NCBI GenBank assembly: GCA_000165345.1
Contig: CM000435.1
Span: 352,001 to 416,000, forward strand
Length of the DNA stretch: 64,000 nucleotides
Direction of reading: 5' to 3'
The notes under the pieces were generated by a model, which worked only from the letters and a program-made list of their open reading frames with translations, was not told the DNA's origin and searched no databases. The first letter of the stretch is position 1. Each line of letters opens with the position of its first letter. Both the position numbers and the translations under genes were made by a program. Below, piece after piece: positions 8,215-46,186 of the stretch.

Positions 8215-8500
8215 TCACTTAGTTTTTTTAAGTTCTGGGCAATTTTTCAGCTCTTCCTGACTCTCTTCTCTAGCTCTATCCCTCTTCCCTGCTTCTCTAT
8301 TTTCTAAATTACCTGAAATCTAAGGTTAGTGCATGCAAACACCGGTGTACATGCACTTGCAAAAACTTGCAAATTTGCATGCAACTCCAGAAAGTAAATT
8401 GTCCAAATTTATACTTACCTTTAGACCAATTCAAAATATTATTTTCTACAGTTTTTACTATATTAGACAACTCAAACTCAATAACTTCAAATGACAACAT
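8215..8500 (-). CDS. Candidate two-exon micro-gene of about 59 aa (exon 1 8419-8500, intron 8313-8418, exon 2 8215-8312). Product unknown
   Basis: ATG at 8500. Exon 1 (MLSFEVIEFELSNIVKTVENNILNWSK) ends in phase 1 directly at a canonical GTAAGT donor. The in-phase acceptor TTTCAG continues the frame for 31 codons (GNLENREAGKRDRAREESQEELKNCPELKKTK) to a TGA stop. The intron would contain a GCATGCA motif cluster. Confidence 0.3.
8329..8393. promoter_or_regulatory. GCATGCAAACA / CACCGGTG / GCATGCA motif cluster
   Basis: gtgcatgcaaacaccggtgtacatgcacttgcaaaaacttgcaaatttgcatgcaac. It lies between two convergently oriented genes (or inside the candidate micro-gene intron). Confidence 0.4.
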
Positions 8501-8652
8501 TTCAATTCAAAAGATTAAAATACAAAGAACTATATGAATAAATAAACAAGTTAATTAAGACTAGAATCCTGGTAATTTCTGACATAACGATTGAGCGGCA
8601 AACCAATATCTAAAAAAAGAGTATTGAAAGAAATTGAGGTGAACTTTTGAAA

Positions 8653-9234
8653 CTAGTTATTTTCAAATTCACTTTCTATTTGTGAATCGTCAGTCTCCAG
8701 AGATTCAATTTCAAGGGATTCATCATCCTCTTGCTCAACTGCTTGACTATTTGAGGATATATATAAAGAAGTGGTATATACCATAGCCCAGCATTCAGTG
8801 GTTTCAGAAAAATTAGAGTCACTATAATTTCTAGTAATCTCAGAAGCAGCAGTCAATACTTCCTGAGTATCTGGAACAGGATCACTACAAACCTCAACTA
8901 ACTTTTGAATAGATTTATCCATTTGTTCGCCACTACATTCCTTTTCAAAGGATTCCTGTAATGACGCACATGCTTCATAAATTTGCTCTGGATTTTGAAC
9001 TTCCGAAGTTTCATTAGACAAATCAGCCCCCTCAAGTTCAACAACTTTCTCTGATGAAGGCTTTTGGCTTTCTTGATTATTGTCTTCTGCTTGTTTGTGG
9101 TCATTTTCCACAAGCTTAACAATATCTTCACCTTCTATTTCTTCAGCTCGACAAGAAAGAATTAGTAAGCCAAATATGAATACTAAAGTAGCAATGAAGA
9201 ACCACTTGAAACCCTTATTATAAATGTACGGCAT
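8653..9234 (-). CDS. Small acidic secreted protein, hypothetical
   Basis: 193-aa ORF with an N-terminal signal-anchor-like segment (FFIATLVFIFGLLILSC). The remainder is strongly acidic (E/D/S/Q-rich). Confidence 0.45.
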   Translation of the reverse strand: MPYIYNKGFKWFFIATLVFIFGLLILSCRAEEIEGEDIVKLVENDHKQAEDNNQESQKPSSEKVVELEGADLSNETSEVQNPEQIYEACASLQESFEKECSGEQMDKSIQKLVEVCSDPVPDTQEVLTAASEITRNYSDSNFSETTECWAMVYTTSLYISSNSQAVEQEDDESLEIESLETDDSQIESEFENN

Positions 9235-9354
9235 GTTATAATAAGTTAATTAATTCAGATTCCCAACAAAAAATATTTTAAAAAAATTCGGAATTTAATG
9301 TGTGTATAAATGCACCATTCACACAAAGTCAAAAGTAGAATAAAACAGGGATAT

Positions 9355-10434
9355 TTATGCCTCATTTAATAAAGTTGAAGGCTCCAATTTACACTTATTG
9401 ATACGTTGTTCAAGATTGTAAAGTCTCTTAATAGCGGTGTAAAGTTCAGAAATATCATCCCAATTAAAAAAGAAACAAGTAATGCCCGAAGTGACGGTAT
9501 TGAAGCATCTAATAATAGTGGCCCTCCCCCCTATGGTGATGTCTTTTCTAACAATAGCTGGAATTAAAAGTATAGTTGGTAGAAATCCAACAAGACTCCC
9601 CAAGCTTTCGCTGATTAAGCTGTATCTAAAAGAGTACAAATAAATATCACTATGAATCAACTTGAGCTCATCAACAAGAGTATCTTCTATTAGTGACAAG
9701 TTAAGTCTTGGAATACCTTCTTCACCCAAAATAAGCTGTTTTCTAAATTCAGCTTCAACAATCTCCTTTCGCATGATTTTAGAGCTCATTTTCCTGGATG
9801 TGAAATAAACCCCAAGAATCGAAACTGAAATCGATATAGCAAGATAAGAAATAAGAGAATATTCAAATCCACTTGGAAACGGTGGAATTCCTGAAACTTT
9901 CCTACTATGTTCAATCAAAATTGGAATGTGAACCAGACTTCTTGAAATAGAAATCACAACTTTAAAGAAAAGATTCAAAATAAGCTTCAAAACCTGAAGA
10001 GTATCTTCCTGGATTCTTTGAGACACTCCTTCCACTCCTTTAATGAATCTCCAATTATCAAATAAGTATTTTGACTCATAATTACGCCAATTAAGAAGTA
10101 TTACTGTTAGGAAGAAATTACTTAATACTCTAAATACACAGAGGAATATGAGGAATAATGGCAGATTTAGCATTTTTTCCCTTATTTCATCCTCATAACT
10201 CTCCCCAGGTTTTGAGTTGAACGAACTGACCAAAAGATTGTATATTTCAGAGAACCATTTTGTCACTTTCAAATGAAGCTTTGAATATTGCACATTCAGA
10301 ATGATTAACAAGAAACAGTAAAACCAAGTACTTGCAGAGTACCTACTGGAGAAAAGAAATTTCCTAATCATATTTCCATTTTTTTGTCTTAATGGCAACT
10401 TCGATTTACAAAATGTCAAGTCGTATAGCGCCAA
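9355..10434 (-). CDS. Six-TM membrane protein resembling the transmembrane domain of ABCD/SbmA-BacA-type transporters, with no nucleotide-binding domain (paralog A)
   Basis: 359 aa with six hydrophobic helices. The loop after TM2 carries NWRFIKGVEGVSQRIQEDT (compare the ABCD/SbmA N(P)DQR(I/L)T(Q/E)D motif). After TM4 comes EAEFRKQLILGEEGI (compare the ABCD EGE(F/Y)R...SEEIAFY motif). No Walker A/B or ABC signature motifs downstream. Confidence 0.6.
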   Translation of the reverse strand: MALYDLTFCKSKLPLRQKNGNMIRKFLFSSRYSASTWFYCFLLIILNVQYSKLHLKVTKWFSEIYNLLVSSFNSKPGESYEDEIREKMLNLPLFLIFLCVFRVLSNFFLTVILLNWRNYESKYLFDNWRFIKGVEGVSQRIQEDTLQVLKLILNLFFKVVISISRSLVHIPILIEHSRKVSGIPPFPSGFEYSLISYLAISISVSILGVYFTSRKMSSKIMRKEIVEAEFRKQLILGEEGIPRLNLSLIEDTLVDELKLIHSDIYLYSFRYSLISESLGSLVGFLPTILLIPAIVRKDITIGGRATIIRCFNTVTSGITCFFFNWDDISELYTAIKRLYNLEQRINKCKLEPSTLLNEA

Positions 10435-10519
10435 CTATTGTTTCAAGTATGTCTAATCAGTTAACTTCTAGACAAGAGACTACAGAGAGAAGAGATAGAA
10501 GGGTTTTAAAGTAGCAGTA

Positions 10520-11521
10520 ATGATTCTATTCAGTGGCCTCAGCAGAAGATCTCTTATCAAGTTGTTTCTCTTTTTGGCTGCAATTTCCGCATGTTCAGTA
10601 CTTCTGTTGTACTTGGAGTTTTCTGGGAACTCTCAACTTAAAACATTTGGAGATGTGTTACAAGCAGCAGTTAAAGATAGGTCAAGTGTTAGTGCTTCAG
10701 ACCTGTACACTTCGTTTTTTGCATTGATTTCTTACAAGCTAGCCGTTGTATTTTTGAAGTCGGTATCTTCATTTCTGTCCAAGAAGAGTATTTTCTTTTG
10801 GAGACTGCAACTAACAGAGTATTTCTTAGAGAACTGGGAGAATATTTACTTAATTGAGGGAGTGTCTCAGAGGATTCAAGAAGATACTATGAGATATTGT
10901 AGACTTTTTGAGAAGTTTTCAATTTTTGTTGTACAGGATTTATTCAAGCTTTTTATATACTTGCCTTTATTACTTGATCTAAGTAAGCATATAACAAGAA
11001 CATGGTTTATACCCAATACAAGGCATTTATTACTTGTTTTGATTATAATTAACTCCATAATTGGAACTTCCATTATTATTTTCCCAAGTAAATACTTATC
11101 TAGGCTCGTTTATAATATAGATAAGGAAGAAGCTGCATTTAGAAAGAACTTGGTTTTATTTGAACTTGAAGAAAGAGACTTTTCTAACTTCGACTTTGAT
11201 GGGAATTACATTAGTGTGGATAATACTCACAGAAGCTACTACAGAAGGTATTATTTTATTAAAATCCTCCAATTATTGCATTTTCGCCTGTCGATGATCA
11301 CTTATTGGTTGTTTGCTCATCCATCAATGGTACCTCCTTATACTCTAGGTCTTCTTAAACAGACAATGCATGCATTTGATGAAGTCTCATCAGTATTTAA
11401 CTTTGTGGTATCTCATTTCAAAAGCTTAGTAGAGTACATTGCAGTTTTTTTGAGATTAAATTTAATGGTTAAGCAAACTATAAAAGCTAAAGAAACCGAT
11501 AAATCTGGGATTTATCATTAA
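10520..11521 (+). CDS. Six-TM ABCD/SbmA-BacA-like transmembrane-domain protein with no NBD (paralog B). Transcribed divergently from paralog A
   Basis: 333 aa. Motifs shared with paralog A: ENWENIYLIEGVSQRIQEDTMR and EEAAFRKNLVLFELEE. Same helix order. Start codon only 85 bp from the paralog A start, on the opposite strand. Confidence 0.6.
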   Translation: MILFSGLSRRSLIKLFLFLAAISACSVLLLYLEFSGNSQLKTFGDVLQAAVKDRSSVSASDLYTSFFALISYKLAVVFLKSVSSFLSKKSIFFWRLQLTEYFLENWENIYLIEGVSQRIQEDTMRYCRLFEKFSIFVVQDLFKLFIYLPLLLDLSKHITRTWFIPNTRHLLLVLIIINSIIGTSIIIFPSKYLSRLVYNIDKEEAAFRKNLVLFELEERDFSNFDFDGNYISVDNTHRSYYRRYYFIKILQLLHFRLSMITYWLFAHPSMVPPYTLGLLKQTMHAFDEVSSVFNFVVSHFKSLVEYIAVFLRLNLMVKQTIKAKETDKSGIYH

Positions 11522-11647
11522 AACTACATATGGAATATTTTCAAGGAAATGTGGGTATTAATATAAAATCAATTCTAGTTGCTTTTTTTTTTTTAAAAAT
11601 TCTATTAAATTTATTAATTCTAAAGTTGAAGATTCTTTGTATTTTTA

Positions 11648-13840
11648 TTACTGAACTTCAAAGAAGATTGAAATATCATCTGACTCATTTGCAAAGAACT
11701 GAACACAGGAAATATTTCCATCTGGCCCATATCCTCCTTTTGAGATTTTGGTTACCTCCATTTTATCAATAGAAAGAAGCAAAAATTGCCCAAGATCTTT
11801 AACACTAATAACCCCTCTTCCAGAGCTAGAAGTGGCACTACTGATATAATGGCCCTTATAAATTGGCTCATTCTCTTTTATTGCAGAAGTTCTAAATACA
11901 TTAATATTCCCAGAACTGGTGTATTCAATTTGAAAAGAAAAACCTTCCTTTTTTGTATATATATCAACTTTCAACGCGCCATTGGAAAATCCTCCAATGA
12001 AATGAAGTACGCCCCCAACTGGAGAACCAGTGGAAGCTGAAGTAAAACAAAGCCTGTTGCTGTCGCATACAGTAGAAATATAAGAACCTCGGTGTTGCTC
12101 AAGAACGCAACTTTTCCTTATTGGTTGGAATTCCGAAGAAATCTTATCAATATTATCACCGTTAATATTCACAGAATAATCGCCCAATGTTTTACTTACT
12201 TTGGTACTTTTGACATTTTCTAAATTGTTAAAGTAGTTTCTACGTAATCCACCAGCATTTTCATCTTTAAGCACAAAAGTATCATTTTGTGGTATATTTT
12301 CATAATCAACTTTATCAAGATTGGTTAAATTGGTTATCAAAACCGCACTTTTTCCATTTACTCCTACTAAAAACTCGGCAACATCTGCATTGTTATCAAA
12401 GCTAATCATTGTTTTCTTTTTATCTTCAGTGGAATCTGAAGCCACTCTAACAGCTACAAAAGTTTGTCCATGGTTATCTTTTGACTGAGAATTACTTGAC
12501 TTAAGCACAGGAAGTATTCCGTCGATTGAGCATGTTCCACTTCCTGAATAAGAATACCTTGTGCAGGGCCTTGTTGGAAGCACAGTGGATGTAGGTTTAC
12601 GGTGAAGCCCTTCAAAGGTTATTCCATATGGAATTTCCCCATTTGGAATAACGATTGGGTCAAATGCATAGAAGCCATTGACTGATATTGTGACAAACAA
12701 AGAAGTAAAGACTAATTTAATTGCATAACTTTGGAATCCATAGCTTTGTAAAGGGAAATATCCTCCCTTAGATCTTATAATATCAGTGCCGCTTGTCCCT
12801 TTAAGAAACAGTCCATTATCATTAATAATGAGATGGAAAAGAATTAATCCTGAATTTGAATTTAATATCACGTGAGTTGTTGATGGCATCTTTACAGATT
12901 TACTTGATACTGATCCCGGTATTCCCAATAATATTTGGCTACCAGGAATTAAAGTACTTTTTGGGATTATAACATTTGATGAAAGACAAGTCTTTGAGTA
13001 TGGAGATATATTCAAGTTTGATATACTAGAACCAGTTACTGGTACACTTAGAACGCAGTTTTCCATTTCGTTATTTTCTATAAATGGAATTACCGAAATT
13101 CTTACATTTTCAAGTCCAGATGTTTGGATCTTGGAAATTCTAATAGGCTTTTCTGCAAGGTTAATATTTAAAATATTATATACCAAGTTATTTAAAGTGA
13201 AGGAAATTGTTGTATTTGTCAAAACCATTACAAAAGTCATCCTACCAATCCCTAAAGTAGAATTTGTTGCATCATTAGCAATCGTAAAATCATCTTGGCA
13301 CCCTTTCAACTCTAAAGTTGTTATTCCATCATTTACTTGAGTTCCATTCACTAATGAACTTATTTTTACGATCGCACTATTCTCTTTAGAGCCCAACTTG
13401 AATGAAATTAGTTCCGAATCATCTTCTGATTTGAATTCATAACTCATTCCAAATTTGTATGAATCTCCAACAATTGTTGTTGTGAATCTAGACGTAATTG
13501 GAACCAACAACGTGCTATTCGAATTATCACAGTTAATTGGCAAAGTTCTATTAAAGCATGAATCTTCTGTAAAATTCATATTTACTGGGATAATTTCTGG
13601 ATTGCTCAACTTGTTTCCCAAATTCTCTTCTGAGCTTTCAGTAATAGAAGTTGAATTCATTGTTCCATTCGAACTTGCCACCTCCTTGATTGGCTCTGCG
13701 CCACCATTTTTGCTTATGTCGCTATTCAGTGACAGATCAGATTCAATTGTTGTACTGACTTGTTGTGATTTAACCTCTACATTCAAGCAAATCGCTAATA
13801 TCAAAAATCCCAAACCTCTTAAAATTTTTCCCTGGTTCAT
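11648..13840 (-). CDS. Secreted S/T/N-rich glycoprotein, hypothetical
   Basis: 730-aa ORF. Signal peptide MNQGKILRGLGFLILAICLNVEVKS. Numerous NxS/T sequons. No catalytic motif. A promoter-like GCATG/CACGTAAT cluster lies 600-700 bp upstream. Confidence 0.6.
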   Translation of the reverse strand: MNQGKILRGLGFLILAICLNVEVKSQQVSTTIESDLSLNSDISKNGGAEPIKEVASSNGTMNSTSITESSEENLGNKLSNPEIIPVNMNFTEDSCFNRTLPINCDNSNSTLLVPITSRFTTTIVGDSYKFGMSYEFKSEDDSELISFKLGSKENSAIVKISSLVNGTQVNDGITTLELKGCQDDFTIANDATNSTLGIGRMTFVMVLTNTTISFTLNNLVYNILNINLAEKPIRISKIQTSGLENVRISVIPFIENNEMENCVLSVPVTGSSISNLNISPYSKTCLSSNVIIPKSTLIPGSQILLGIPGSVSSKSVKMPSTTHVILNSNSGLILFHLIINDNGLFLKGTSGTDIIRSKGGYFPLQSYGFQSYAIKLVFTSLFVTISVNGFYAFDPIVIPNGEIPYGITFEGLHRKPTSTVLPTRPCTRYSYSGSGTCSIDGILPVLKSSNSQSKDNHGQTFVAVRVASDSTEDKKKTMISFDNNADVAEFLVGVNGKSAVLITNLTNLDKVDYENIPQNDTFVLKDENAGGLRRNYFNNLENVKSTKVSKTLGDYSVNINGDNIDKISSEFQPIRKSCVLEQHRGSYISTVCDSNRLCFTSASTGSPVGGVLHFIGGFSNGALKVDIYTKKEGFSFQIEYTSSGNINVFRTSAIKENEPIYKGHYISSATSSSGRGVISVKDLGQFLLLSIDKMEVTKISKGGYGPDGNISCVQFFANESDDISIFFEVQ

Positions 13841-14457
13841 TTATTTTACCTCTTCCACGAAATCTTAAGTTATTGTTTTATTTGTCTTTACCACAACTTT
13901 ATCTCTCTTGTTTCTTCTTTCTAATATTAATTCTTATTTTTGGATTCAGCTTGGAATAAACCATTTACCCACACGTAATCTTAGAGTGTTATGCGCGCCA
14001 GATTGCATACCGGTATATGTTAATCTTGCATGTATGATTTAAGAAAAGAATAATAATCTTGGTCAAATGGATTCAAATAAATAATCAAAAACTTATATTT
14101 TATTTTATGCTTATTACAATTATCTCTCGCTTTATATTTGAATATTTTGAAGTTTTGATAACTTTAATTACTAGTTATTACATTTTTTATTCAACTTTTT
14201 TAACTCTTTAATAATTAATATTTCTCTAATCAATTTACTTAATTTCCGGATTTAAATGATGAGTTTTAGGTTAAACATGTGGTCAAAAATTGTTCTAATT
14301 TTTTCTTAATCAACAGATTTTATCTAATCAATATTATCTGATCTAGAGCTCAACTCCTTCCAATACTTCCACAAATAATATGCACTTCAGCAGACTCTAA
14401 ACCTCATCTCTACCTTTTTCTTCTAATTATTTTCCTCTCTCCAATCATTTATTGGCC

Positions 14458-14555
14458 TTGCATGTAATACACGTAATGTTTGCATGCTCATTTGCATGTA
14501 TTTGTTTGCATGTGCAAATTGACCACATGCACTGCTGTAACAAATGCCACGTAAC
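14458..14555. promoter_or_regulatory. Dense GCATG x5 plus CACGTAAT/CACGTAAC cluster (likely promoter of the 11648-13840 gene)
   Basis: ttgcatgtaatacacgtaatgtttgcatgctcatttgcatgtatttgtttgcatgtgcaaattgaccacatgcactgctgtaacaaatgccacgtaac. Confidence 0.5.
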
Positions 14556-14908
14556 AATAATCAATTTTCATACTTTAGAATAACAGAGTTCTACTGAAAT
14601 TTTGAAACAAAATTTTTTATTTTTTTTTGAATAGAACAAGTACAATAAAAAATATAAATATACAAAAAATAGTTTAATCACTAACAAGAGCTGGAACTTA
14701 AATTAAGGAGAAGGATGAATAGTTTTTGGAGAGTAATATGATATTTATTAGTTATTATCATTCTGGAGAAGAATCTAATATAAAGAACTAATGTCTCATG
14801 GAATTTTTTAATATTTCAAGGTTAAACGCAATAAATATTTTTCTGATGTTTATAATCAAAACAATTTCATAAGGTTTCATTAATAATCTGATATAAAGTT
14901 GGATTCCT

Positions 14909-16795
14909 TTACTCCAAATTCGTTAAATCACTATTAGAATTATCACAATTTATGTGTGAAGATTGATTTGCAGAAGATTTCGAAGAAGTAGAAGAATAAG
15001 AGGAATTCAAATTCAAGTTATTTTCGCCATCAAGCTTCCAAGAAAGAGCAGACTCAGCAATCTCACGAGTGAGAGATTCCACCCCCGATCCAAGCACTAT
15101 TGATTTCATTCCCAAGACTAATTTGAAAAGTTGTCTTCCAGAAAACCCTTCTGTCTTTCTAGCTAAGACATCCAAAAATGTTTGGTCTAAAGAGGGATGA
15201 ATCTTAATTGAATTATATAATGATGGTAAATTAATAAATTTCCCTGATTCGTAAGAACAATTGAAATTAAGTTCTAGAAATTGCTTAATAAGTTTAAGCC
15301 TTTCATTAAAGCCAGGATTGGGAAATTCAAAAACTTCATCTACCCTATCAATTACAGCACTATCCAAAGTTCCTGGGACATTTGTGGCAAGTAAAATACA
15401 AATATCTTTAGATTCTGTTCCAGTTTGGTGGAGAAAAGCACTGAGCGCATTTCTGGAATTTTCAGATTTACTGGAAGTTGTGGATTCTCTTCCTTTTGAC
15501 AAAAATGCTTCAGCCTCATCAATAAATAGCAGCATTCCCTTATTTGATTTACGAGCCCAATCAAAGACTTTATTTAATTCTGTTACTCCATTTTTTCCTA
15601 GTTTTCCCACATCTCCTCCTGACATTATAGCATAATCCAATCCACTTTCCTTTGCAAGCTTTCTAGCAAACATGGTTTTACCAGTTCCAGGTTTTCCCCA
15701 AAGCAACATATTTCTAAATGGTACATCAAATCTTCTTGAGTTCACCAAAGTATTTACAGTCCAATTTAGTCTATTTTCAAGTTCAGATGGCAATACAATA
15801 TTTTCAAAGACTTTTGGTTTTTTTACTAGTTTATTTCTCAGTCCTAAAAGTCTGAAAGCGATTGCTGGAGAAAAGAAGTTGTTTCTTACTTTTAATCCGT
15901 GTCTTGTTAGAAAACTCATATTGGTTTCCCTGATAAGACTTGGCCTTCCAAAGCTAGTTTCTATCATATTTGCTACTACTCTTGTAGTATTCTTTGCTCC
16001 ATAAATTCCAAAAGCCATTGCTGTTAAGCCTCCAACCAACATTGTAAGCTTTGATTTATCTTGGTATAAAGAGCTCCCCATTTCTCTAATACCTCCAAAA
16101 ATTGTTTTAATTGATTCTAAATGGGTTGTTCTACTTTCTTTTGCTTTGGCTTTAATTTCACCCAATCTTATATCTGCATTCTCTCTCTCAGCTTTAATCC
16201 TTCCAATAGTTTCTTCCCTAATCCTCACTTTAATATTCTCCTGCTGCAGCTTATTCTCATATTCTGATTGCCTTCTTTTCATCTCCAATATTTCTCGTTC
16301 ATTCTTTTTTCTAATCTCTTCCTGTTCCAAAAACTTGTCGTGTTGTTGTTTTAGCATCCTGGCATTCTGGCTTTCTTGTTCTTTCAGCTTTTTGTAGTAT
16401 GCCTCTGTCTCAAGCTTTGCCTTGTATTGGGATGTAGCCCTCTCCTCCTCCTGCTGATGAGTAATTGTTTTTCTTCTCTCATCAGCCTCTATTCGAGTTC
16501 TCTCTAGATTTGCTTTTGACCTATAAGCAGAACTCTGTTCAATATCTCGTTCAAGCTCTTTCTGTTTTGTCTTCTCTTGGAGCTTTATAATTTCAAATGC
16601 TTTTTGCGCATTAGGAGAAGAATCTAATTGTTTCAGAGCTTTTGCTCCTCTCTCCAGAGCTGTTGGGTCAAAGTTTCCATTAATGCTTCCCCCTCCATTC
16701 CCACCCGTATATTTTCCTCCAGAATCTTTATCACCACTTCCAGAATCTGGATTTGGGCTTCCTTGTCTTCCTCCGAATCCACTAAAGAACATCAA
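14909..16795 (-). CDS. ATAD3: ATAD3-family mitochondrial AAA ATPase
   Basis: Gly-rich N-terminus, then NFDPTALERGAKAL (the ATAD3 N-terminal signature). Charged coiled-coil. TM segment LTMLVGGLTAMAFGIYGA. AAA core LLWGKPGTGKTMFARKLA (Walker A) and LLFIDEAEAF (Walker B). An E2F-like TTTGGCGCCAA site sits 40 bp upstream of the ATG. Confidence 0.85.
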   Translation of the reverse strand: MMFFSGFGGRQGSPNPDSGSGDKDSGGKYTGGNGGGSINGNFDPTALERGAKALKQLDSSPNAQKAFEIIKLQEKTKQKELERDIEQSSAYRSKANLERTRIEADERRKTITHQQEEERATSQYKAKLETEAYYKKLKEQESQNARMLKQQHDKFLEQEEIRKKNEREILEMKRRQSEYENKLQQENIKVRIREETIGRIKAERENADIRLGEIKAKAKESRTTHLESIKTIFGGIREMGSSLYQDKSKLTMLVGGLTAMAFGIYGAKNTTRVVANMIETSFGRPSLIRETNMSFLTRHGLKVRNNFFSPAIAFRLLGLRNKLVKKPKVFENIVLPSELENRLNWTVNTLVNSRRFDVPFRNMLLWGKPGTGKTMFARKLAKESGLDYAIMSGGDVGKLGKNGVTELNKVFDWARKSNKGMLLFIDEAEAFLSKGRESTTSSKSENSRNALSAFLHQTGTESKDICILLATNVPGTLDSAVIDRVDEVFEFPNPGFNERLKLIKQFLELNFNCSYESGKFINLPSLYNSIKIHPSLDQTFLDVLARKTEGFSGRQLFKLVLGMKSIVLGSGVESLTREIAESALSWKLDGENNLNLNSSYSSTSSKSSANQSSHINCDNSNSDLTNLE

Positions 16796-16830
16796 AAATC
16801 AATTCCGGACCTTTAACTGTATTCATTGAG

Positions 16831-24685: not shown

Positions 24686-24706
24686 GTTTTACTTTTCTTT
24701 TCCTTG

Positions 24707-36446: not shown

Positions 36447-37661
36447 ATGGGTAGATATATAATATTGGATACAGGCGCTATATTGCGACTAGGGAAACAT
36501 GACTTTATGGACGATGTTTTGTTAACGGTACCTTCAGTAATTCGAGAGGTAAAGGATAAAAAGGCATTGGAGAAGATGTTTTACTTGCAAGATAGGATTC
36601 AGGTAATGGAGCCTTCAGAACAGGATTGCGGTTTTGTGAAGAAGTTTTCTAAAGAGACTGGCGATTTTGGGTTTCTTTCAGAGACAGACTTTCAAGTAAT
36701 TGCATTAACCTTGTCTTACCACAAGAAGTATGATGAAATTTCAAAGCTTAACAGTAAGCCTAGAGAGATTAGTCTTGTTACCAAGTCTGAAGAGGTGGGA
36801 AGTTGCGAGAAAGGGATGGATAAGGACTTACAGGAGGTAGAAATGGAGACTGGTGAGCAGAAAGAACAAAGCACAGAAGATGAGGATGACTGGGAGACTG
36901 CTAATGGACAAAGCAGCAGAAGAGAGGAAGTTCAGTCAGGGGAAGATGAGGAAGAGGAGGAGGAGTGTGAGGAAGAGGAGTGCGAGGAGGATGAGGATGT
37001 CTCCAAGGGACTGGAAGATGATGTGTTTTCTGGAGGATGGATTACCAAGGCAAATATTACAAGTGTTATGGGAGGTTTATCTTCTGGATCCCAGAGCCAC
37101 TTTGTGGTAGCATGTATGACCACTGACTATTCTATGCAGAATGTATTACTCCAGATGGGTTTGAATCTTGTAGAGATACATGGGTTATCGGTTAAAACTA
37201 TTAAGAGGTGGGGGCTTCTTTGCTGTGGATGTTATACTTATGAGAGAGATACAAGCCGAAAGTTTTGTGGAAAGTGCGGAAATGCTACTTTAGATAGAGT
37301 TCCAATTAAAGTTTCTTCTGATGGAACAATTGAATTAGACTGCTATAGAAAGAAAGTGAACCTAAGAGGAACTATTTACTCTATTCCTAAGCCAAGAAGA
37401 GGTGTTAGAAATCAAGAAATCATTTTGGCAGAGGATCAACTTATGATGGGAGGAAGACAAAGGTTACTAAATCATCAAAGAAAGAAATGGGAGAAGGCTT
37501 GCAAGGAAAGGGACCCTTTTTCTAATAGTGGAGCTGATCTTGAAAGCAGTTGGGGGAAGCAGTTTGGAAGTTTTAGGTACCCCGAAATAAAAATTGGAAT
37601 GGGAAGAGGAAACCCAAATTCTAATAGTTGGCAGAAGAAACGTAGTGGTAAGAAAAAATGA
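36447..37661 (+). CDS. NOB1: 20S pre-rRNA D-site endonuclease NOB1 (PIN domain plus zinc ribbon)
   Basis: N-terminal PIN domain (MGRYIILDTGAILR). Acidic insert. C-terminal zinc ribbon CCGCYTYERDTSRKFCGKCGN. TTTTGGCGGG lies about 85 bp upstream in the divergent spacer shared with the FKBP-TPR gene. Confidence 0.8.
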   Translation: MGRYIILDTGAILRLGKHDFMDDVLLTVPSVIREVKDKKALEKMFYLQDRIQVMEPSEQDCGFVKKFSKETGDFGFLSETDFQVIALTLSYHKKYDEISKLNSKPREISLVTKSEEVGSCEKGMDKDLQEVEMETGEQKEQSTEDEDDWETANGQSSRREEVQSGEDEEEEEECEEEECEEDEDVSKGLEDDVFSGGWITKANITSVMGGLSSGSQSHFVVACMTTDYSMQNVLLQMGLNLVEIHGLSVKTIKRWGLLCCGCYTYERDTSRKFCGKCGNATLDRVPIKVSSDGTIELDCYRKKVNLRGTIYSIPKPRRGVRNQEIILAEDQLMMGGRQRLLNHQRKKWEKACKERDPFSNSGADLESSWGKQFGSFRYPEIKIGMGRGNPNSNSWQKKRSGKKK

Positions 37662-37977
37662 AAATTTTTCATTTTTCTCAGACTCGACTCAATATATTAA
37701 TCATTATGTTTTCACTGCTATTACCAGAATCCAAGGCTTAAGATAACTAAGGTTGTTTCTCAATTTTGACTCGAATATTATCAGAGAGTTTAATAGGTAC
37801 GGATTTGGAATTAGACATTTAAGACACTGTTTTTTCCTAATTTTTATTAAAGAGAAGAGCTAGAACATAAATCAAATATGCTTATAATCATAATCAAACA
37901 AAAGCCAATCTAGAATAAATATTAGCATTTTTTTCAACCCAAACTTAATTACTCTAAACTTAATTTTCCTCGTTCTA

Positions 37978-38204
37978 TATATGCATGCAAACATTAACCC
38001 GCCAAACCCCCAACCAAACTTTGACTTATAAATTCTTCAGATTTGCATGTAACCAGTTTTACCACGTGTACTAAAAACTTCTTTAAATCAACCCCTCACC
38101 CTATAATGGTCTACCGCCCATTATGTAATTAATTCATTTTTTTTACTTTTATTGCATTTTTAAATAAGTTGGAGGCATACAAATTAGAGCACTTTGGCGC
38201 CAAT
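37978..38204. promoter_or_regulatory. AspRS upstream region: GCATGCAAACA, TGCATGTAACCAGTTTTACCACGTG and TTTGGCGCCAA
   Basis: atgcatgcaaacatt... (37981), tttgcatgtaaccagttttaccacgtgtac (38042-38071), actttggcgccaatt (38191-38205). Confidence 0.55.
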
Positions 38205-38383
38205 TACAAAAAGTAAATGTGATGTTAACAAATTAAAGATGGACGCGTCTAAGATAAAGACGAGAATAAATAAAGTTTGAAAAGGATTTCTATAAGAATA
38301 ATTTAGGATAAAGTTTTTGTGAGAATTGGATTCATAAGTATCAGTTTGGAGTTAAGATAGATAATTTACTGGAAAATAATTAA

Positions 38384-40595
38384 ATGACTACAGAACCAGA
38401 GGTAAAAGAACAAGTCCTTTCAAAAAAGGCATTGAAAAAGCAAGAAAAACAAGCACTTAAAGAAGCTAAAAAGGCAGAGGCAAAGAGCAATCAGCAGCAA
38501 CAACAGCAATCAGTTCATTGGAGTTCAGTTATTGTACATTCAACTGAGGCATCTCCATATGGAGTAATTCCTTTTAATTGCAAAATTGAGAACAGGACTT
38601 TTTCAAAGATTAAGGAATTGAATTCTAACCAGAAAGGTGAGAAAATCTGGTTAAGAGGTAGAATTACGGAGTCCAGATGTAAAGGATCTTTAGGATTTGT
38701 ACTGCTCAGACAAACTTTCTATAGACTACAATTAGTTGTTGATGCTAATAATGGTAGTTCTAAGGAAATGATTAAATGGCTTGGATGCCTTCCAATTGAG
38801 AGTATGATCGATGTATATGGCACTATAGTAGTTCCAGAAACTCCAGTGGTTTCATCAACACAAGATATAGAGGTTTTAGTTGAAAGAGTTTACTGTGTCT
38901 CATCGGCTTGCAGTGAATTACCTTTCCAATTAAAAGATGCTAATAGGGTTGAAACTGAGGATGAGGATTCCACAATTATTAAAGTTCTACAAGATGTCAG
39001 ACTGGACAACAGAGTATTGGACTTGAGAACTTATTTGAGTCAGGCAATATTCAGAATTCAATCGGAAGTATGCAGATTGCTTAGGGAATTCCTCATAGAA
39101 AGAGAATTCATTGAGATTCATACTCCCAAACTTTTACCAGGTGCTTCCGAAAGTGGTGCCACTGTATTCAAAGTAGACTACTTCTCAAATACAGCTTGCT
39201 TAGCACAGTCACCTCAACTCCATAAACAAATGTCAATTTGTGGAGATTTAGAAAGAGTCTTTGAAATTGGTCCTGTTTTCAGAGCAGAAAATTCAAATAC
39301 TCACAGACATTTATGTGAGTTTGTTGGAGTTGATATTGAAATGAACATTGAAAATACTTATCATGAGTTGGTTGACGTTTTCGACGCTATGTTTAGACAT
39401 ATATTCCAAGGAATCAATACTCATTGCAAGAATGAATTACTTATTGTCTCGGAATATAATCCATTTACTCCTTTCGTCATTTCAGAAAAGACTCCACGTC
39501 TTACTTTTGAAGAAGGATGTAATCTCCTTAAGGAGGCAGGCGCTGAAATTCCAGAAGATCTGTCTGATTTTGATATTTCCACAGAGCAGGAAAGATTACT
39601 TGGTAAGTTCCATACTAAGAATTTTCTAGTAAGATTGAAAAGGGCAGGATTTGAGAAGAGCGGACATAATTTTAAATGTTATTGGACTTGAATTTCAAAT
39701 CCGTAGTTCTTTCTCATTCCTTTTGCTTATTTCATCTTACTATGATATTATTATCTATCAATTGATAATATTATAAACCTTTTTGAATATATTTAATTAT
39801 AACTAACCTAAATCATTAATTTCCTATTTAGGTTCTATTGTCAAGGAAAAATACAACTCAGATTTCTATATGATGCTTAAATATCCACTCAAAGTGAGAC
39901 CTTTTTACACAATGCCTGACTTTGATGAACCAGAGGTAAGTTAATCTTTTATTTTGCCTCCCAAGAAATATAGAAAGCTTGAAAGTATAAAATAGAGAGA
40001 AGAAACAAGGGGATTTAGGGATTTTAAGGGAAAATTGAAGATTTGCTTTCTTATTGAGGGATGATGATTGTTCATTCACCCATAGCCTGTAAACTCAAAC
40101 GTGTATTTGCACATGCGTGTAGATACAGCTACGTTTGAACCCTTGATGACAACTTTTCATGCATCACCAACTGACCTCAATATAGCTCTTCCCCATTTTC
40201 CTATACTTCCTCTACCCGCTTTTCCTCCCTTTTACTTCTCTTAGGAGCAATATAGACAGCTTGGGAGGCGTTCCCGCTTTTACATGCAAATAATTACCGC
40301 CAATTTCCCCACATTTTAGAAATGGTCCAATTCTTTTGACTTCTTTATGAGAGGAGAAGAAATATTAAGTGGAGCACAGAGAGTACATGATTACGATTTA
40401 TTAGTAAAAAGGTGCCAAGAGTGCGGTGTTTCAGAACATTCACTTAGAGACTACTTGAACTCATTCAAGCTCGGCGCTCCTCCCCATGGTGGATGTGGAA
40501 TTGGGCTTGAAAGAGTCATTATGCTCTTTTTGAATCTTGGAAATATCAGGAAGTCTTCAATGTTTCCTCGTGATCCAAAGAGACTTAGTCCATAA
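38384..40595 (+). CDS. Cytoplasmic aspartyl-tRNA synthetase, three exons
   Basis: Exons 38384-39602, 39832-39935 and 40320-40595. The first donor is G|GTAAGT; the second follows ..DFDEPE. Class II motifs [25 protein letters not shown] and [36 protein letters not shown]. Exon 2 ([29 protein letters not shown]) and the exon 3 start ([21 protein letters not shown]) restore collinearity with eukaryotic AspRS. TTTGGCGCCAA lies about 190 bp upstream. Confidence 0.85.
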
Positions 40596-40939
40596 AGTCT
40601 TATTTTATTTGACTCTAATTATGGTTATGCTGGACTGTACACCAATATTGCATACTCATTATTTAGTACATATACATTACTAGATTAAATATCTATTTAT
40701 GATTCTATATTAAAATATTAGTGAGCTTTATATAACACATCATTATCACTCTAAAAGTTTTCTCTAAACAAAGGCAAATTTTTTCTCTGGCATTTTCGTC
40801 GCCTTAATGTCTTTCTGTTATTTTATTACAAGATAAAAATATTTACCCGTAGCTCAAACTTTATTCTCTCTATTGTATGCAGAGACACAGACGTATGACC
40901 CCGCCTGGCACGAAGTTAATAGAAATGTAATAATATAAA

Positions 40940-41090
40940 AAAAGAGGTAAAAAGGGTACCCAGACATAATATATATTAAATAGGAGTAAAGTGAAATTAA
41001 ATAGTAAAGTTTAATGGCCAAATAAGAGGCAAAAAAAAGTTAAATTAAATATATAACAAAAGGGGGTAAAAAGAGGTAAAATAGAGAAAA
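40940..41090. repeat. Degenerate purine-rich GGTAAAA/GAGGTAAAA repeats upstream of the 41422 gene
   Basis: gaggtaaaaagggtacc, ggagtaaagtgaaattaaatagtaaag, gggggtaaaaagaggtaaaatagag. Confidence 0.5.
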
Positions 41091-41421
41091 AACGTTTGTA
41101 TAGACTGGACTATAATATGATCACAGGTACCTGCGGGGAATTAAAATAATTAAGTGACTAGAAAAGGTTTATGACTCTTATGTACAAGAAAGGAGAAAAA
41201 TTCGTTTTAAGAAATAAATTGTTAAGAGGAAGAGGAATTTGGTAGAGTTGAGTTTCCAAGTGATATTTAAACTTAATTGGGAGGCTGATTGGAATAGATA
41301 TTTAATAAATAAATAGAGAGAAATAGAGAAGAAAGGAGAGAGAAAGAAATAATAAATTAAGAAGTTTTGAATTCAAGGTGAAAGAAAGGTAAAAAACTTA
41401 ACGAGTTGAATAGTAAATAAT

Positions 41422-43944
41422 ATGGAAGAAGGATATGATTGGGACCAAATTAGCAGCTTCCAAATAGTGGATGGAATGAATATTTCAAGTTCATCATTAT
41501 TGGATGATGAGCTATTGATAACGTCGCCAGATTCATCAAATAATGGTAATAGTGTTTCATTGGAGCAAAGAGAATTCTCCAGACCAATTTGTTCGCCTCT
41601 TTCACAGTTTTTGGTAGGCTCTGACGGATCTAATTCAAAAAATGTAGGTCAGAAACATTTTTCACAACACCAACATACTAATAGTGCCGGTGGTGCTGGT
41701 GGAAGTAACTTTAACTTAAATAACAGCCATTCTTCAATTGTTGGTGAGTCTCAGCATTATGGATTACAATCTGGGTTAACAAACTCTGGAAATAATATTA
41801 GAGATAACTCAATATATAATACTGGATATCAATTTAATGATACTGAAAAGATTTCCACAACTGAAAAGGAATTTACTAAACGTAAACGTCCATATAGTAA
41901 TAATAGTAACAACAATATCAATGTTGGTAGTAACTCATCCAATAGAATTGGTAACTGTACTCAAAATAGTTTATCTGGAATTACCAGATCTGTTATGGGT
42001 ATTGGCGGAATTGGAGCAGGAGTTACAAATAACTCATTAACTAAGACTCCTAGCAAGACTCGTACCAGAAAAGTGCGAGAAAGTTCGGATGATTTTGGAA
42101 ATTCTTCAAGCGGACCGTCAGTTCATTCAAAGTCTGGCTACTCTTCAAATTCATCAGGAGAAAGTTGTTCTTTTGGCTCATCTTCAAATGTTTCTGAAGA
42201 CCTTAATTCTGTTAAGTATTATGAAGGATTTAAGCTACCTCTCGGAGACCTTGGAAGAAAAATGCTTCTTAAGAAATTGCGTGAAATACATACTCAAAAC
42301 CCAACGAAAATGGAGAAAGCTCTTACTGACCATGGACTTTCTTATACAAGAATTAGATTCGCAAGTGTCCAACAACTTTTCAAAATCTCTTATGTATGCG
42401 ATGTATTTGACTATGCTCTGAGCATACATTGTGAATTTGGAAGGCCAAGACATAGAGATTCTTCCAAAAGTGTCCAACTCTCCTCTGTAAATTCAAATTC
42501 AAATATGATGCAACAACAATCGCACTCAAATATATCATCCAGAAGAGTATTAGATTCTCAACAACATAACAATGGACTCGGTGGAGGAGCTGCAGTACAA
42601 GGAGGTATTTCTGAAAAATTTGAATCGCATTCTTCTATCGGCAATACAAATGGAGGAGTTATTCCAAGAGGACAAGGTCTTTTGGATGATTCTTCAAAAG
42701 TATTAGGAAAACTTGAGACTGATTTAGATACTTACACACCAGAAACATCCCCGTGTAGTCATCGATCATATTCCTCCAGTAAAAGTCTTTATTCAAAGGA
42801 TTCGAGCTTGATTTCTAATACACCATTAAACAAGATTGAACATGATATTACTTCACCAATTTCAATATTCTCCACTACAAGTGGTTCACCAGCCTCACAA
42901 AGAAAAAGAAGAGGATCTGCAAAGTCAAGTTATAATTTCTCACCTCCCCCTATTCCCGTTACAAACTCTCCAATACAATCAGGAGACCCAAAAGATATAT
43001 CTTCCTTGAATCCAGAGCTCTCTAACTTTATGAATAACCAGAACCTAATTAATTATAACATAATTCAAGGTAATGTATCCAATAATAATATGAATGGAAA
43101 CTCATCTGTTTCAGGATTTAGTACACAAAGTGATGTTTGTACCAGCCATTTTCCTGATCATCAGCAGCAACTTCACCATAATATTGGCCATTATAACAAT
43201 ATAAATAACCACATTCAAAATGGAGGCCGAGCTCCTCACCATCCTCCTCCTTCGTACCATAAGAAACACGAAGAACATGAACCTTTGGATTCGATGATTT
43301 CTATGAATAGCGGCTCAGATAGTGTTCTACAAAAGCCAGCAAAAAGACAAAAGATTAGGTCCAAAAAGAAGAATGCTTTGGCAGATATTAGAAGTGAGCC
43401 TCCAACACAGGCAACTTATTCTTATTCCAGCTCAACTCAGCCTGGAATAAATAATGGCTCGAGTATATTTGTCTGCGGAGATATTGATGAGATTTACTGT
43501 ACCTCAACAATTAACACTGAAGTTACCCCCTTTTACCAACCAGAATCGGAGATTGCTCACCTTGGTGAATTCGAGACATCTCATCATAGTCATAATTATC
43601 ATAACCATCACCAAGATTCAATCCATTTTATTTCTTCAACTGAATCACATGACCAGAATATTCCAATTTGTTCAGCATTTGGATCACCCTTTGATTCTTC
43701 TTTAATTATTAGCTCTTCCCTGGATACTGAAAGCTCCCAAAATTCTGGAATTATTACATGTGATAGCCCAACATCATTTTACCTGTATTCACAACCAAAT
43801 ATCTCTTCCAATTATGATGAATATATGGATTCTTCTTGTCTCAATGGATTCCTTACTCAGGGCTTAAATTCTATAGAAATGCTTAATTCGAGCGAGCTAG
43901 AAATGGACAACTTTGACATTGGATGTCCTTTAATTTCAATTTAA
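41422..43944 (+). CDS. Hypothetical S/N/G-rich low-complexity protein of 840 aa with one ordered central region. Possibly nuclear
   Basis: Long ORF dominated by Ser/Asn/Gly/His runs. The only ordered block is around VKYYEGFKLPLGDLGRKMLLKKLREIH...YALSIHCEFGRPRHRD. No confident domain call. Confidence 0.45.
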   Translation: MEEGYDWDQISSFQIVDGMNISSSSLLDDELLITSPDSSNNGNSVSLEQREFSRPICSPLSQFLVGSDGSNSKNVGQKHFSQHQHTNSAGGAGGSNFNLNNSHSSIVGESQHYGLQSGLTNSGNNIRDNSIYNTGYQFNDTEKISTTEKEFTKRKRPYSNNSNNNINVGSNSSNRIGNCTQNSLSGITRSVMGIGGIGAGVTNNSLTKTPSKTRTRKVRESSDDFGNSSSGPSVHSKSGYSSNSSGESCSFGSSSNVSEDLNSVKYYEGFKLPLGDLGRKMLLKKLREIHTQNPTKMEKALTDHGLSYTRIRFASVQQLFKISYVCDVFDYALSIHCEFGRPRHRDSSKSVQLSSVNSNSNMMQQQSHSNISSRRVLDSQQHNNGLGGGAAVQGGISEKFESHSSIGNTNGGVIPRGQGLLDDSSKVLGKLETDLDTYTPETSPCSHRSYSSSKSLYSKDSSLISNTPLNKIEHDITSPISIFSTTSGSPASQRKRRGSAKSSYNFSPPPIPVTNSPIQSGDPKDISSLNPELSNFMNNQNLINYNIIQGNVSNNNMNGNSSVSGFSTQSDVCTSHFPDHQQQLHHNIGHYNNINNHIQNGGRAPHHPPPSYHKKHEEHEPLDSMISMNSGSDSVLQKPAKRQKIRSKKKNALADIRSEPPTQATYSYSSSTQPGINNGSSIFVCGDIDEIYCTSTINTEVTPFYQPESEIAHLGEFETSHHSHNYHNHHQDSIHFISSTESHDQNIPICSAFGSPFDSSLIISSSLDTESSQNSGIITCDSPTSFYLYSQPNISSNYDEYMDSSCLNGFLTQGLNSIEMLNSSELEMDNFDIGCPLISI

Positions 43945-44622
43945 CAAAGTTCATTAACTTCTCAAAAACCGTCTGTCGTTTTGATAGACATTAATTATTA
44001 CTGCAATACTCTTTTGGTAATAATGATAACCTTTTATATCCAGTTTAATCTTAACTTCGAATACTTCTTCCTCATCCAAATCAAATTAATAGTTTTTAAG
44101 CTTTTGAGATAAATAATTTATGTACATATTTCTATATTCATTACGTCATCCCGATTATTATAATGCTTTTGAAAATATTATATATTTTAATATTCAAGTT
44201 TTGGAGCAATATAAGCACTAATTTGCTGTTATTTGCTTGCGCTCTTTTCCATTGAGAGGAAACTTGAAGCTTTGAAATTTTGGTCTCCACAATTATTTAA
44301 CGATTCAGTTGCTTTGGAAGAGTTAATTAACCCTCTTCGAGGGTCAACTAATTGCAGAAAATTTCTCTTTGCCTCTGCAAAATAAAAAAAAACAAAGGCC
44401 AACACATTTTTTTGCTATTTTTTATTTTTCTCTCTTTTTTTTCATTTTTATATGTAAAATATTCATTTTTGTGAATTTTAAGCATTCCCAATTCTTAAAT
44501 TGAACGTTATTGCTTTTTAATATTTTTTTCAAGGTTTTAAGTTAAAGGGGGATACAAACCAAAGATTAAATTGTAAATCAATATTAATTTATGCTTAAAA
44601 TCGACATAGTGGAAACAAAACT

Positions 44623-45402
44623 ATGTCTGATTCACAGAAACTGGATTCCAGGTACCTGAAAATACTGATTTCAGCAATTCTAATCATTGGTCCTTGTATT
44701 CTGTACTTTATTTCAACATCAAAATGGCTTTTTATGCAACATAATTACTTGTTAATTACCTTGAGTTATATACTTTTCATAATTATGACAACTTCCATGG
44801 TATTTACGTTTTTGAAAAATCCTGGAGTAATAATATCACAATCCAAGCTCAGCAATCCACCTTGCTCCATAGATTTACAGATTAATGCACAGATTGTTAA
44901 AGTCAAGTTCTGCTCTAATTGCAAAATTATCAGACCCCCACGAACTGTTCATTGTAATATCTGCAATCATTGCGTAGATAGGTTTGATCATCATTGTCCC
45001 TGGGTAGGAACATGTATCGGTGCAGGAAACTACAAATTGTTTATGTTATTCATCTCAACACTATTTTTACTTGAACTAGCCATGCTTTTGGGGTCATGCA
45101 AAATGGTAAACCATTTTACTTACGAAGCCTCGCATATACTAAATCTGGGAAATTCTACCAAAATCTTTGTTCACACAATGAATCACTCTGCTGGAGCGGC
45201 TGTAGTTATTGGGTTTGCTTGTTTTACCATCCTATTTTCACTTTCTCTCCTTATATTCCACTTGTATATTGGCGCCATGAACAAAACTACTTATGAAGAA
45301 ATTAAAAAACTTTATAGTGAGACTTCAAATCCATGGTATTCTGGAATTTCGAGGAATATAGCTGAGTTGTTTCTAAGTCCATCTCCAAAATTTAATTATT
45401 AG
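44623..45402 (+). CDS. DHHC-type protein S-palmitoyltransferase
   Basis: Four TM segments flank the DHHC cysteine-rich domain [44 protein letters not shown]. Confidence 0.85.
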
Positions 45403-45598
45403 TGCGATGATTTGCATTAACTTTAAGTATTCTCATCAAATTGGTTGTTTAAATCAGCGCCAGACTCATCCATTTTAAGCTATTAACAGGTACTTTCATT
45501 CAAAAAGAACATATTTTAATCTTTTTTTTTCTTTAATTAAGATTTTATACTCCATTGAGAAAATTATTAATCAACCATAATAAATCATTATCAACCTT

Positions 45599-45985
45599 GT
45601 GATGGAAACCTCTTATAATGAAGAAACTGGAGAAAAAAACCTTCTTCAACTAAATCTTGCAAACCGAGTTTCTGAAAAACTTGCAAAGACTGGACTTTGG
45701 AAAAATATTAATGTAAAATGGTCACACAATATTCATTTACATATTGTTACTGCTGTTCAAATCTTATTTTCTTCCAAACAGTATCTCAAACTTTCTACCT
45801 TTATTCCTCTCAGCGATTTAGACCATATTGATTCCTCTTTTTTTGAAAATTTGCAACAAGACTCAAAAATCATTCTGCCTTATATCAACTCAAAAATTAG
45901 TCACCATTATGTTCTTGCTATTGTTAGTAGTGATGACGAACTTATACTTCAATCAGTTAACTTTGATCTTAAGAAAATTGTTTGA
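45599..45985 (+). CDS. Hypothetical small protein (128 aa)
   Basis: ORF only. Weak resemblance to a longin/sedlin-like fold at the C-terminus (HHYVLAIVSSDDELILQSV). Coding status uncertain. Confidence 0.3.
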   Translation: MMETSYNEETGEKNLLQLNLANRVSEKLAKTGLWKNINVKWSHNIHLHIVTAVQILFSSKQYLKLSTFIPLSDLDHIDSSFFENLQQDSKIILPYINSKISHHYVLAIVSSDDELILQSVNFDLKKIV

Positions 45986-46073
45986 TCCCAATTTTTTTAT
46001 TCAATTACTTTAAAATTTATTATGTTTTGCCGTTTTTTTAAAAAATTTGCACAATCATATTATAATATTCTTC

Positions 46074-46186
46074 CACATGCAAAACATACTTGCATTACCG
46101 GTACTAAAATTATTCACTGTTAACATTTTCATCCACATGGAAAAAAGTAATTATTGCATGCAATATAAAAATAAATACACGTAATG
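46074..46186. promoter_or_regulatory. CATGCAAAACA / ACCGGT / TTGCATGCAA / CACGTAAT cluster between convergent genes
   Basis: ccacatgcaaaacatacttgcattaccggtact...attattgcatgcaatataaaaataaatacacgtaatgac. Confidence 0.4.

Follow-up and report, generated by a model that had tools for sequence, protein, structure and literature searches.

Three short sites in a 64,000-nucleotide (nt) stretch of Cryptosporidium parvum chromosome 7 (the window; positions 352,001 to 416,000 of the forward strand of CM000435.1, assembly GCA_000165345.1) carry promoter-type motifs at places where no coding promoter is expected: the single intron of a 59-residue micro-gene (cluster 1), the spacer between two converging genes (cluster 3) and the 3′ end of intron 2 of the AspRS gene. 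Judged by their sequences, all three are maintained by selection and are putative protein-binding DNA modules like those that form the usual promoters of this compact genome. The reading we favour, to which we give a probability of about 0.45, is that the clusters would serve as promoter-like starts for transcription outside the coding gene models, mainly of antisense or non-coding RNA. The motifs, the factor families and the phenomenon are already known, and the most interesting piece is the conserved module embedded in an intron. We document the identity of the motifs, their enrichment, their placement relative to verified genes, the constraint on them and their promoter-like architecture. 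Gene calls were taken from GCA_035232765.1 / CP141124.1 (C. parvum BGF), whose chromosome 7 proteins are identical to those encoded here and where the record coordinate equals the window coordinate plus 392,890, and the gene map built from them underlies every statement of position below. The G+C content of the window is ∼30–36%.

The promoter-type word of the clusters is, by sequence match, the ApiAP2 element AP2_1. This element (BGCATGCAH) is enriched in the upstream regions of C. parvum genes, and the AP2 protein cgd2_3490 binds it in vitro (PMC3734150, PMC12246861). In the window TGCATGCA occurs 12 times compared with 0.68 expected, and GCATGC 20 times compared with 4.8; the words that accompany them are also in excess, with ACACGTAAT present five times (0.16 expected), ACCGGT six times (1.7 expected), TCCACATG five times (1.4 expected) and CTTGCAW 35 times (21 expected). 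Most of the sites lie in tandem spacers, 120–650 nt upstream of a start codon. Cluster 1 holds three distinct sites of AP2_1 type within 120 nt and is the second-densest group in the window; among 300 shuffles, only four contained any 120-nt stretch with at least three such sites. In cluster 3 there are just two AP2_1-like sites, a count that is not significant, together with two copies of TCCACATG, ACCGGT and ACACGTAAT. Neither cluster lies within ∼1 kb upstream of a start codon on the correct strand, cluster 1 being intronic and cluster 3 standing between two stop codons; cluster 3 would count as upstream only if RNase Z, ∼650 nt off and beyond the cwf18 gene, were included.

The first cluster and its host gene comprise the following features.

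8215–8500, minus strand: two-exon micro-gene of 59 residues (CPATCC_0007100 / cpbgf_7001365), from an NCBI gene call and conservation in four species

8500–8419, minus strand: exon 1 of the micro-gene

8418–8313, minus strand: its single intron (106 nt)

8312–8215, minus strand: exon 2 of the micro-gene

8327–8383, no strand assigned: cluster 1, the conserved intron core (57 nt; 8329–8393 in the initial annotation), from motif scan and alignment

8330–8337: TGCATGCA

8339–8348: ACACCGGTGT

8349–8355: ACATGCA

8356–8362 and 8366–8372: CTTGCAA

8376–8383: TGCATGCA

This locus was compared in four species: C. parvum, chipmunk genotype I, C. ubiquitum and a G+C-rich Cryptosporidium (SRR31860986). 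The start codon of the micro-gene, its GTRAGT donor, its TTTCAG acceptor, the intron phase and an open reading frame (ORF) of 58–59 residues are kept in all four, with intron lengths of 106, 106, 106 and 121 nt; the 59-residue protein has no match in Pfam. Within the intron, 37 of the 50 columns at 8327–8376 are invariant (74%), compared with 5 of 36 (14%) in the remainder, 24–27% in the flanking spacers and 40–57% in the micro-gene exons. Consensus folding of the core returns only the hairpins that any palindrome would form, with covariation at a single pair among 15; since most of the pairs are the same in every species, the test is uninformative and does not count as a negative result. Older gene sets do not include the micro-gene, and the spacer 8027–8652 then appears convergent.

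The second region lies in the convergent spacer between a 127-residue protein gene and a cwf18-family gene.

45602–45985, plus strand: 127-residue protein gene CPATCC_0007310 (UniProt Q5CYP2), to the left of cluster 3

46072–46186, no strand assigned: cluster 3, a composite element (115 nt; 46074–46186 in the initial annotation) in a 311-nt convergent spacer

46072–46079: TCCACATG

46089–46095: CTTGCAT

46097–46104: ACCGGTAC

46132–46139: TCCACATG

46154–46163: TTGCATGCAA

46177–46185: ACACGTAAT

46297–46620, minus strand: cwf18-family gene CPATCC_0007320 (84 residues) with a 69-nt GT-AG intron at 46479–46411, to the right of cluster 3

Five Cryptosporidium species were compared for this cluster, for the 127-residue protein gene and for AspRS intron 2, the set for cluster 3 including C. 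felis; C. canis was left out, as its contig stops 554 nt upstream of RNase Z. A whole-spacer alignment of the five species misplaced the short motifs, and local alignments and motif maps were therefore used. The blocks CCGGTAC.AAA, TCCACAT, GCATG[CT]AA (GCATGCAA) and ACACGTAAT occur in the same order in all five species and are invariant or nearly so. Invariant columns make up 42% of the cluster 3 core, compared with 14–15% of the flanks, which are presumably 3′ untranslated regions. The spacing between blocks differs by no more than 7 nt among species, and a conserved RNA fold was not found in the cluster (consensus −0.34 kcal/mol, with no covariation). This combination of variable spacing with no conserved fold is the signature of protein-binding sites and not of a structured RNA; a structured RNA at cluster 1 or cluster 3 was considered and set aside, consensus folding having given it no support.

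Conservation across species leads us to regard the clusters as real regulatory DNA. One further copy of the word provides a negative control. The TGCATGCA at 11367–11374 lies within the coding sequence of an SbmA/BacA-like protein, where it encodes M-H-A-F, and was entertained as a fourth case at a convergent 3′ end; synonymous changes remove it in SRR31860986, the most distant species at that locus, and we conclude that it is a coding coincidence. The enrichment counts, the shuffles and the conservation in four to five species together show the motifs to be real and non-random. The initial annotation had placed both clusters in convergent 3′ spacers, which holds for cluster 3 (between 45985 on the plus strand and 46297 on the minus strand) and not for cluster 1, which sits inside the intron at 8313–8418.

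The genes that flank cluster 3 were both verified. The 127-residue protein is 38–80% identical across the five species, with insertions and deletions in frame, and differences in its ORF fall at codon positions 1, 2 and 3 in the numbers 14, 13, 35 and 23, 13, 42. This third-position bias and the conserved protein answer the question of whether the ORF at 45599–45985 is protein-coding; it is, at 45602–45985. Li et al. 2021 (PMC7840661) also list the gene in their table of mRNA expression clusters, and in Pfam the protein has only a weak, sub-threshold match to DUF3978 (E = 0.03). The opposing gene matches the Pfam family cwf18 with E = 3e-4, below the curated cut-off. Mis-oriented gene models, one of the explanations first offered for the clusters, find no place here: the codon bias and conservation of the 127-residue gene, the Pfam match and minus-strand GT-AG intron of cwf18, and the conserved splice sites of the micro-gene all contradict them. 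RNase Z and cwf18 have a conserved E2F site, TTGGCGCCAAA (46667–46677), in their common 193-nt divergent spacer. The C. felis RNase Z model (isoform X2, locus 9774–10093, minus strand) has a first exon that overlaps the opposite-strand cwf18 gene, so that the gene has probably been misannotated there; a spacer of 488 nt in C. felis was discarded as an annotation artefact, since it depends on the RNase Z model that overlaps cwf18.

The third region, AspRS intron 2, combines two different elements.

38384–39602, 39832–39935 and 40320–40595, plus strand: the three AspRS exons, as solved here

39936–40319, plus strand: intron 2 (384 nt), whose arms pair in a long stem with a small nucleolar RNA (snoRNA) at the tip

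40055–40179, plus strand: snR55/Z10-like C/D box snoRNA (125 nt), from alignment and a weak Rfam match

40061–40067: C box AUGAUGA (the snoRNA is closed by a terminal stem TGAGG/CCTCA)

40144–40149: C′ box UGAUGA

40171–40174: D box CUGA

40271–40314, no strand assigned: promoter-like module at the 3′ end of intron 2, kept in four of five species

40271–40277: TTCCCGC

40282–40289: ACATGCAA

40295–40305: E2F/DP1-type site TTACCGCCAAT

40307–40314: CCCCACAT

Most of this intron appears to be given over to the predicted snoRNA, to which a small E2F/AP2 module of promoter type would be added. The fold energy of the intron is −93 kcal/mol (z = −3.5); one example of pairing between its arms is GCCTCCCAAG near 39958 with CTTGGGAGGC at 40260. 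The C/D box framework GAGG-GAUGAUGA ... CUGA-CCUC is invariant in the five species, and 73 of 124 snoRNA columns (59%) are invariant compared with 1–5% in the intron arms. There are two guides, and the guide and D box CAUGCAUCACCAaCUGA agree with the snR55 consensus at 16 of 17 positions. The match to the Rfam family snR55/Z10 (RF00472) is weak, at 19.8 bits against a gathering score of 50 (E = 1.1), so the family threshold is not reached, and scans of the entire window with Rfam at the gathering threshold and for tRNAs returned no RNA family and no tRNA. A candidate target of the snoRNA is the conserved GGUGGUGCAUGG segment of 18S rRNA. The snoRNA probably accounts for the retention of this unusually long intron, and intronic snoRNAs have been reported in C. 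parvum (PMC9465071).

Intron 2 had been credited with a set of promoter-type words. The CATGCA and E2F-like words are indeed present, and only the last ∼45 nt (40271–40314) are promoter-like. The CATGCA at 40158 belongs to the guide at 40151–40170 and, lying inside the conserved stretch of guide and D box, is read as snoRNA guide and not as a promoter word; CACATGCG likewise falls within the snoRNA body. In the module itself the E2F site reads TTACCGCCAAT, TTACCGCCAAT, TTCCCGCCATT and CTGGCGCCAAT across four species, so that the sequence changes while staying within TTSSCGCCWAA. The C. felis intron 2 is shorter and has other GC-rich E2F-like words. AspRS intron 1, which serves as a control, is not conserved.

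Comparison with canonical promoters of the window shows that the clusters share their architecture as well as their words. Read on the minus strand, cluster 1 follows the region upstream of PPIP5K through TGCATGC-AA-TGCAAG-TT-TTGCAAG-TGCATGT with a score of 37, the best of 200 shuffles reaching 27, and its ACACCGGTGT-TTGCATGCA pair parallels ACACGTGT-TTGCATGCA upstream of the 1536-residue protein gene, where the trio GCATGC, ACACGT and TCCACAT is conserved. In the PPIP5K and 369-residue gene promoters, ATTACGTGT stands 13–14 nt ahead of the AP2 site in the direction of the gene, and cluster 3 read on the minus strand presents the corresponding ACACGTAAT/ATTACGTGT-AP2 pair at 14 nt. A longer stretch of cluster 3, ATATTTT..CTGT..CATTACGTGTA, can likewise be aligned with PPIP5K, at a score of 31 that does not exceed the best shuffle (32). 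The 13-mer AATACACGTAATG is shared with the promoter cluster at 14466. Taken together, these parallels weakly favour leftward (minus-strand) output from both clusters. The motif order CCACATG, GCATGC, ACACGT was also considered as a guide to direction and was rejected, the order and orientation differing between the promoters of the 730-residue and 1536-residue genes.

The positions of ACACGTAAT in the window are 13971, 14469, 21442, 28314 and 46177, each within ∼50 nt of an AP2_1-like site, and the spacing between the two is fixed at 13–14 nt in three of the five cases. The pairing suggests a composite AP2 + ACGT-core element, which has no name in the published motif lists that we compared.

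Published transcripts place motifs of this kind at the starts of non-coding RNAs. Li et al. 2021 describe 396 C. parvum long non-coding RNAs (lncRNAs), mostly antisense and biased towards 3′ ends (PMC7840661), and list the E2F/DP1 motif TTSSCGCCWAA, the ApiAP2 motif ANTTGCATGYA and TTGTCCACATK within 100 nt upstream of them (table S3, PMC7840661). The modules studied here likewise contain E2F, ApiAP2 or CCACAT motifs, and the pair CCACATG + TGCATGCA is also found upstream of Cp_lnc_311 and Cp_lnc_54. Three catalogued transcripts fall in the window.

40708 to 38398, minus strand: Cp_lnc_327 (CPATCC_0007283), antisense to all of AspRS including its introns (DataSheet_1, PMC7840661)

44588 leftwards, minus strand: Cp_lnc_328, whose start is separated by 35 nt from the start codon of DHHC

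55666 rightwards, plus strand: Cp_lnc_305, whose start is separated by 62 nt from a conserved E2F site between UDG and RPLP0

The positions of Cp_lnc_328 and of the DHHC start suggest a common bidirectional promoter.

The favoured reading can be set out as follows. The modules combine AP2_1 (TGCATGCA and its relatives), ACACGT(AAT), CCACATG and ACCGGT, to which the AspRS intron adds E2F/DP1. Transcription factors would bind these modules, and transcription would start at them, just beyond the 3′ end of a gene, with the start and direction as predicted from the parallels above. On the minus strand, RNA from cluster 1 would begin in exon 2 of the micro-gene and run antisense into the 3′ end of the CRAL-TRIO gene, and RNA from cluster 3 would be antisense to the 127-residue gene.

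Several results weigh against this reading. In the lncRNA table of Li et al., which is ordered, CPATCC_0007003 is followed directly by 0007283, and 0007293 by 0007353. Twelve k-mers taken on both strands near clusters 1 and 3 have no match in the lncRNA FASTA file of that study; this file is unwrapped, so k-mer look-ups in it are reliable, and the positive controls (a primer sequence and Cp_lnc_327) were recovered. Cp_lnc_327 starts at 40708, ∼400 nt before the intron module, which is therefore internal to that transcript and is not its mapped promoter. Peaks of open chromatin in sporozoites, from the assay for transposase-accessible chromatin, are reported to be E2F-rich and without AP2 motifs (Xiao et al. 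2025, PMC11761812), from which it follows that AP2-type modules are probably active at other stages. Finally, the scores for the two strands differ little (37 and 31 for cluster 1, 31 and 23 for cluster 3), and the direction is tentative, most of the motifs being palindromes.

For both clusters and for the intron module, the 100 nt that follow the motifs contain no lncRNA 5′ end of the published catalogue, which also has no entry at CPATCC_0007090–7110 or 7310–7320. This negative is limited in that a plus-strand RNA leaving either cluster would be assembled from short reads as part of the same-strand mRNA that follows, and in that low-abundance or late-stage RNAs may escape. Unannotated transcription units, which the motifs had been thought to signal, do exist at these places, in the form of the micro-gene within 8027–8652, the predicted snoRNA in intron 2 and the published antisense lncRNA of AspRS; none of the catalogued lncRNAs starts at cluster 1 or 3.

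The same gaps in the catalogue fit a rather unlikely but serious alternative, in which the sites are position-flexible modules that serve neighbouring coding genes and give rise to no transcripts of their own. Cluster 1 would then be an intronic enhancer of the 59-residue micro-gene, or of a dicistron of a 193-residue gene and the micro-gene (with an upstream spacer of 152 nt), and cluster 3 would be a distal module of RNase Z, whose start codon lies ∼650 nt to the right with cwf18 nested between on the other strand. Elsewhere in the window, AP2 clusters lie at comparable distances from the genes that they presumably serve, 400 nt from the start of AspRS, 480 nt from that of the 931-residue gene, 556 nt from that of the 1536-residue gene and 650 nt from that of RPLP0. 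The retention of the GCATGC, ACACGT and TCCACAT trio upstream of the 1536-residue gene and the conserved length of the micro-gene intron around its motif core point the same way, as does the occurrence of polycistronic transcripts in C. parvum (PMC11761812). Against this, RNase Z and cwf18 already have the E2F site TTGGCGCCAAA, distal or intronic enhancer action is not known from Cryptosporidium, and apart from the host micro-gene no correctly oriented start codon is found within 2 kb of cluster 1.

A DNA role other than that of promoter seems improbable to us. Through bound factors or a patch free of nucleosomes, the sites would then keep converging polymerases apart, as roadblock terminators or insulators, or would serve as replication origins. 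Cluster 3 does lie midway between two 3′ ends, in a 311-nt spacer that exceeds most convergent spacers of the window (which range from overlapping to 188 nt, with one of 416 nt), and several AP2 clusters are nearer to the upstream stop codon than to the next start, at distances of 14 nt for the TPR gene and 112 nt for UDG. However, seven of eight convergent junctions have no such cluster and one pair of genes overlaps by 30 nt, so that the element is not a general requirement; its motif content and order match those of canonical promoters, and no role of this kind is documented for AP2_1 sites.

Slightly less probable again is action at the level of RNA, with UGCAUG-type motifs bound by RNA-binding proteins that govern splicing or mRNA stability, or with the intron core representing an intermediate-size intronic non-coding RNA. 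Cluster 1 is transcribed within the intron, and an AATAAA at 46171–46176, inside cluster 3, indicates that the mRNA of the 127-residue gene may run through that cluster; Li et al. 2022, moreover, report 23 intronic non-coding RNAs in C. parvum and suggest that they keep introns in place. The clusters nevertheless gave no conserved secondary structure or covariation (the test at cluster 1 being uninformative), the same blocks occur at canonical promoter positions that are not transcribed, and the motif is absent from the other introns of the window.

Functionless chance groupings of an abundant palindromic word are very improbable: two AP2_1 hexamer sites per 120 nt, as in cluster 3, are often reached in shuffles and the CATGCA at 40158 is coincidental as a promoter word, but the clusters are conserved in four to five species where their flanks are not, the control site within coding sequence decays, and TGCATGCA occurs twice in 54 nt of cluster 1 compared with 0.68 expected over 64 kb.

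Two observations elsewhere in the window deserve record. In the spacer between AspRS and the 840-residue gene, a block of ∼200 nt (41058–41262, plus strand) is almost invariant in five species and exceeds even the adjacent coding sequence in conservation. All of its frames lack an ORF, Rfam yields no significant match and the consensus fold is weak; the block could be an unannotated non-coding RNA, or else a leader or promoter of the 840-residue gene under unusual constraint. Within it, TGATCACAGGTACCTGCGGGGAA is similar to motif 4 of Li et al.

The 402-residue gene and the CRAL-TRIO gene stand 1.5 kb apart, and in this interval (∼3938–4568, plus strand) chipmunk genotype I and C. ubiquitum have an annotated gene of 364–377 residues encoding a RanBP2-type zinc-finger protein. 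The C. parvum sequence retains fragmented similarity to it (31–50% identity in three frames) and has no plus-strand ORF of more than 50 residues, which suggests that the gene has decayed or been lost in this species. A TGCATGCA at 4018 and an E2F site at 4042 fall inside this relic.

Little is understood of how Cryptosporidium regulates its genes, and tests of individual cis-elements are very few. The clusters, being short (57 and 115 nt), sharply bounded, conserved and located where no coding promoter is needed, offer clean test cases for AP2_1, and what is at issue is whether AP2_1 clusters have stand-alone roles in starting antisense RNA, as enhancers or as boundaries. The local map is also corrected, with a spliced micro-gene in the first spacer, a coding function for the 127-residue ORF and a predicted snoRNA in AspRS intron 2. 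A bolder version of the proposal that the clusters start non-coding RNA, which we regard as doubtful, would have the micro-gene intron kept throughout the genus for its ∼60-nt AP2 module, acting as an embedded promoter or silencer in the manner of the var intron; with cluster 3 it would then define a class of conserved 3′-end or intronic elements that start antisense RNA and control the CRAL-TRIO and 127-residue genes at particular stages.

Among the closest known systems are the lncRNA upstream regions of Li et al. 2021, which have the same three motif types in the same place just past the 3′ ends of mRNAs; the present sites differ in that neither the two clusters nor the intron module has a catalogued lncRNA start within 100 nt. 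The upstream AP2_1 clusters described by Oberstaller 2013 (PMC3734150) share with ours the core motif and its relatives ACATGY, WATTGCA and HTGCACH, and they too form clusters, are over-represented outside coding sequence and have E2F-like sites as companions. Unlike them, the present clusters, which are putative binding sites, are intronic or lie between 3′ ends and not upstream of an annotated coding start. Related AP2_1-type motifs include the AP2-Sp/AP2-EXP sites of Plasmodium and the TRP-2 motif of Toxoplasma. The putative snoRNA resembles snR55/Z10 in its C, D and C′ boxes, its terminal stem, its sense intronic location and its guide with D box CAUGCAUCACCAaCUGA, and departs from that family in its score (19.8 compared with 50 bits), in its 5′ half and first guide, and in its length of 125 nt. 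The var gene intron of P. falciparum is a bidirectional promoter thought to yield both sense and antisense non-coding RNA. The host of cluster 1 is a single-copy 59-residue gene and not a member of a variant antigen family, its sequence is unrelated and the promoter role is here a predicted one; what the two systems would have in common is a promoter-type element in the conserved intron of an apicomplexan gene.

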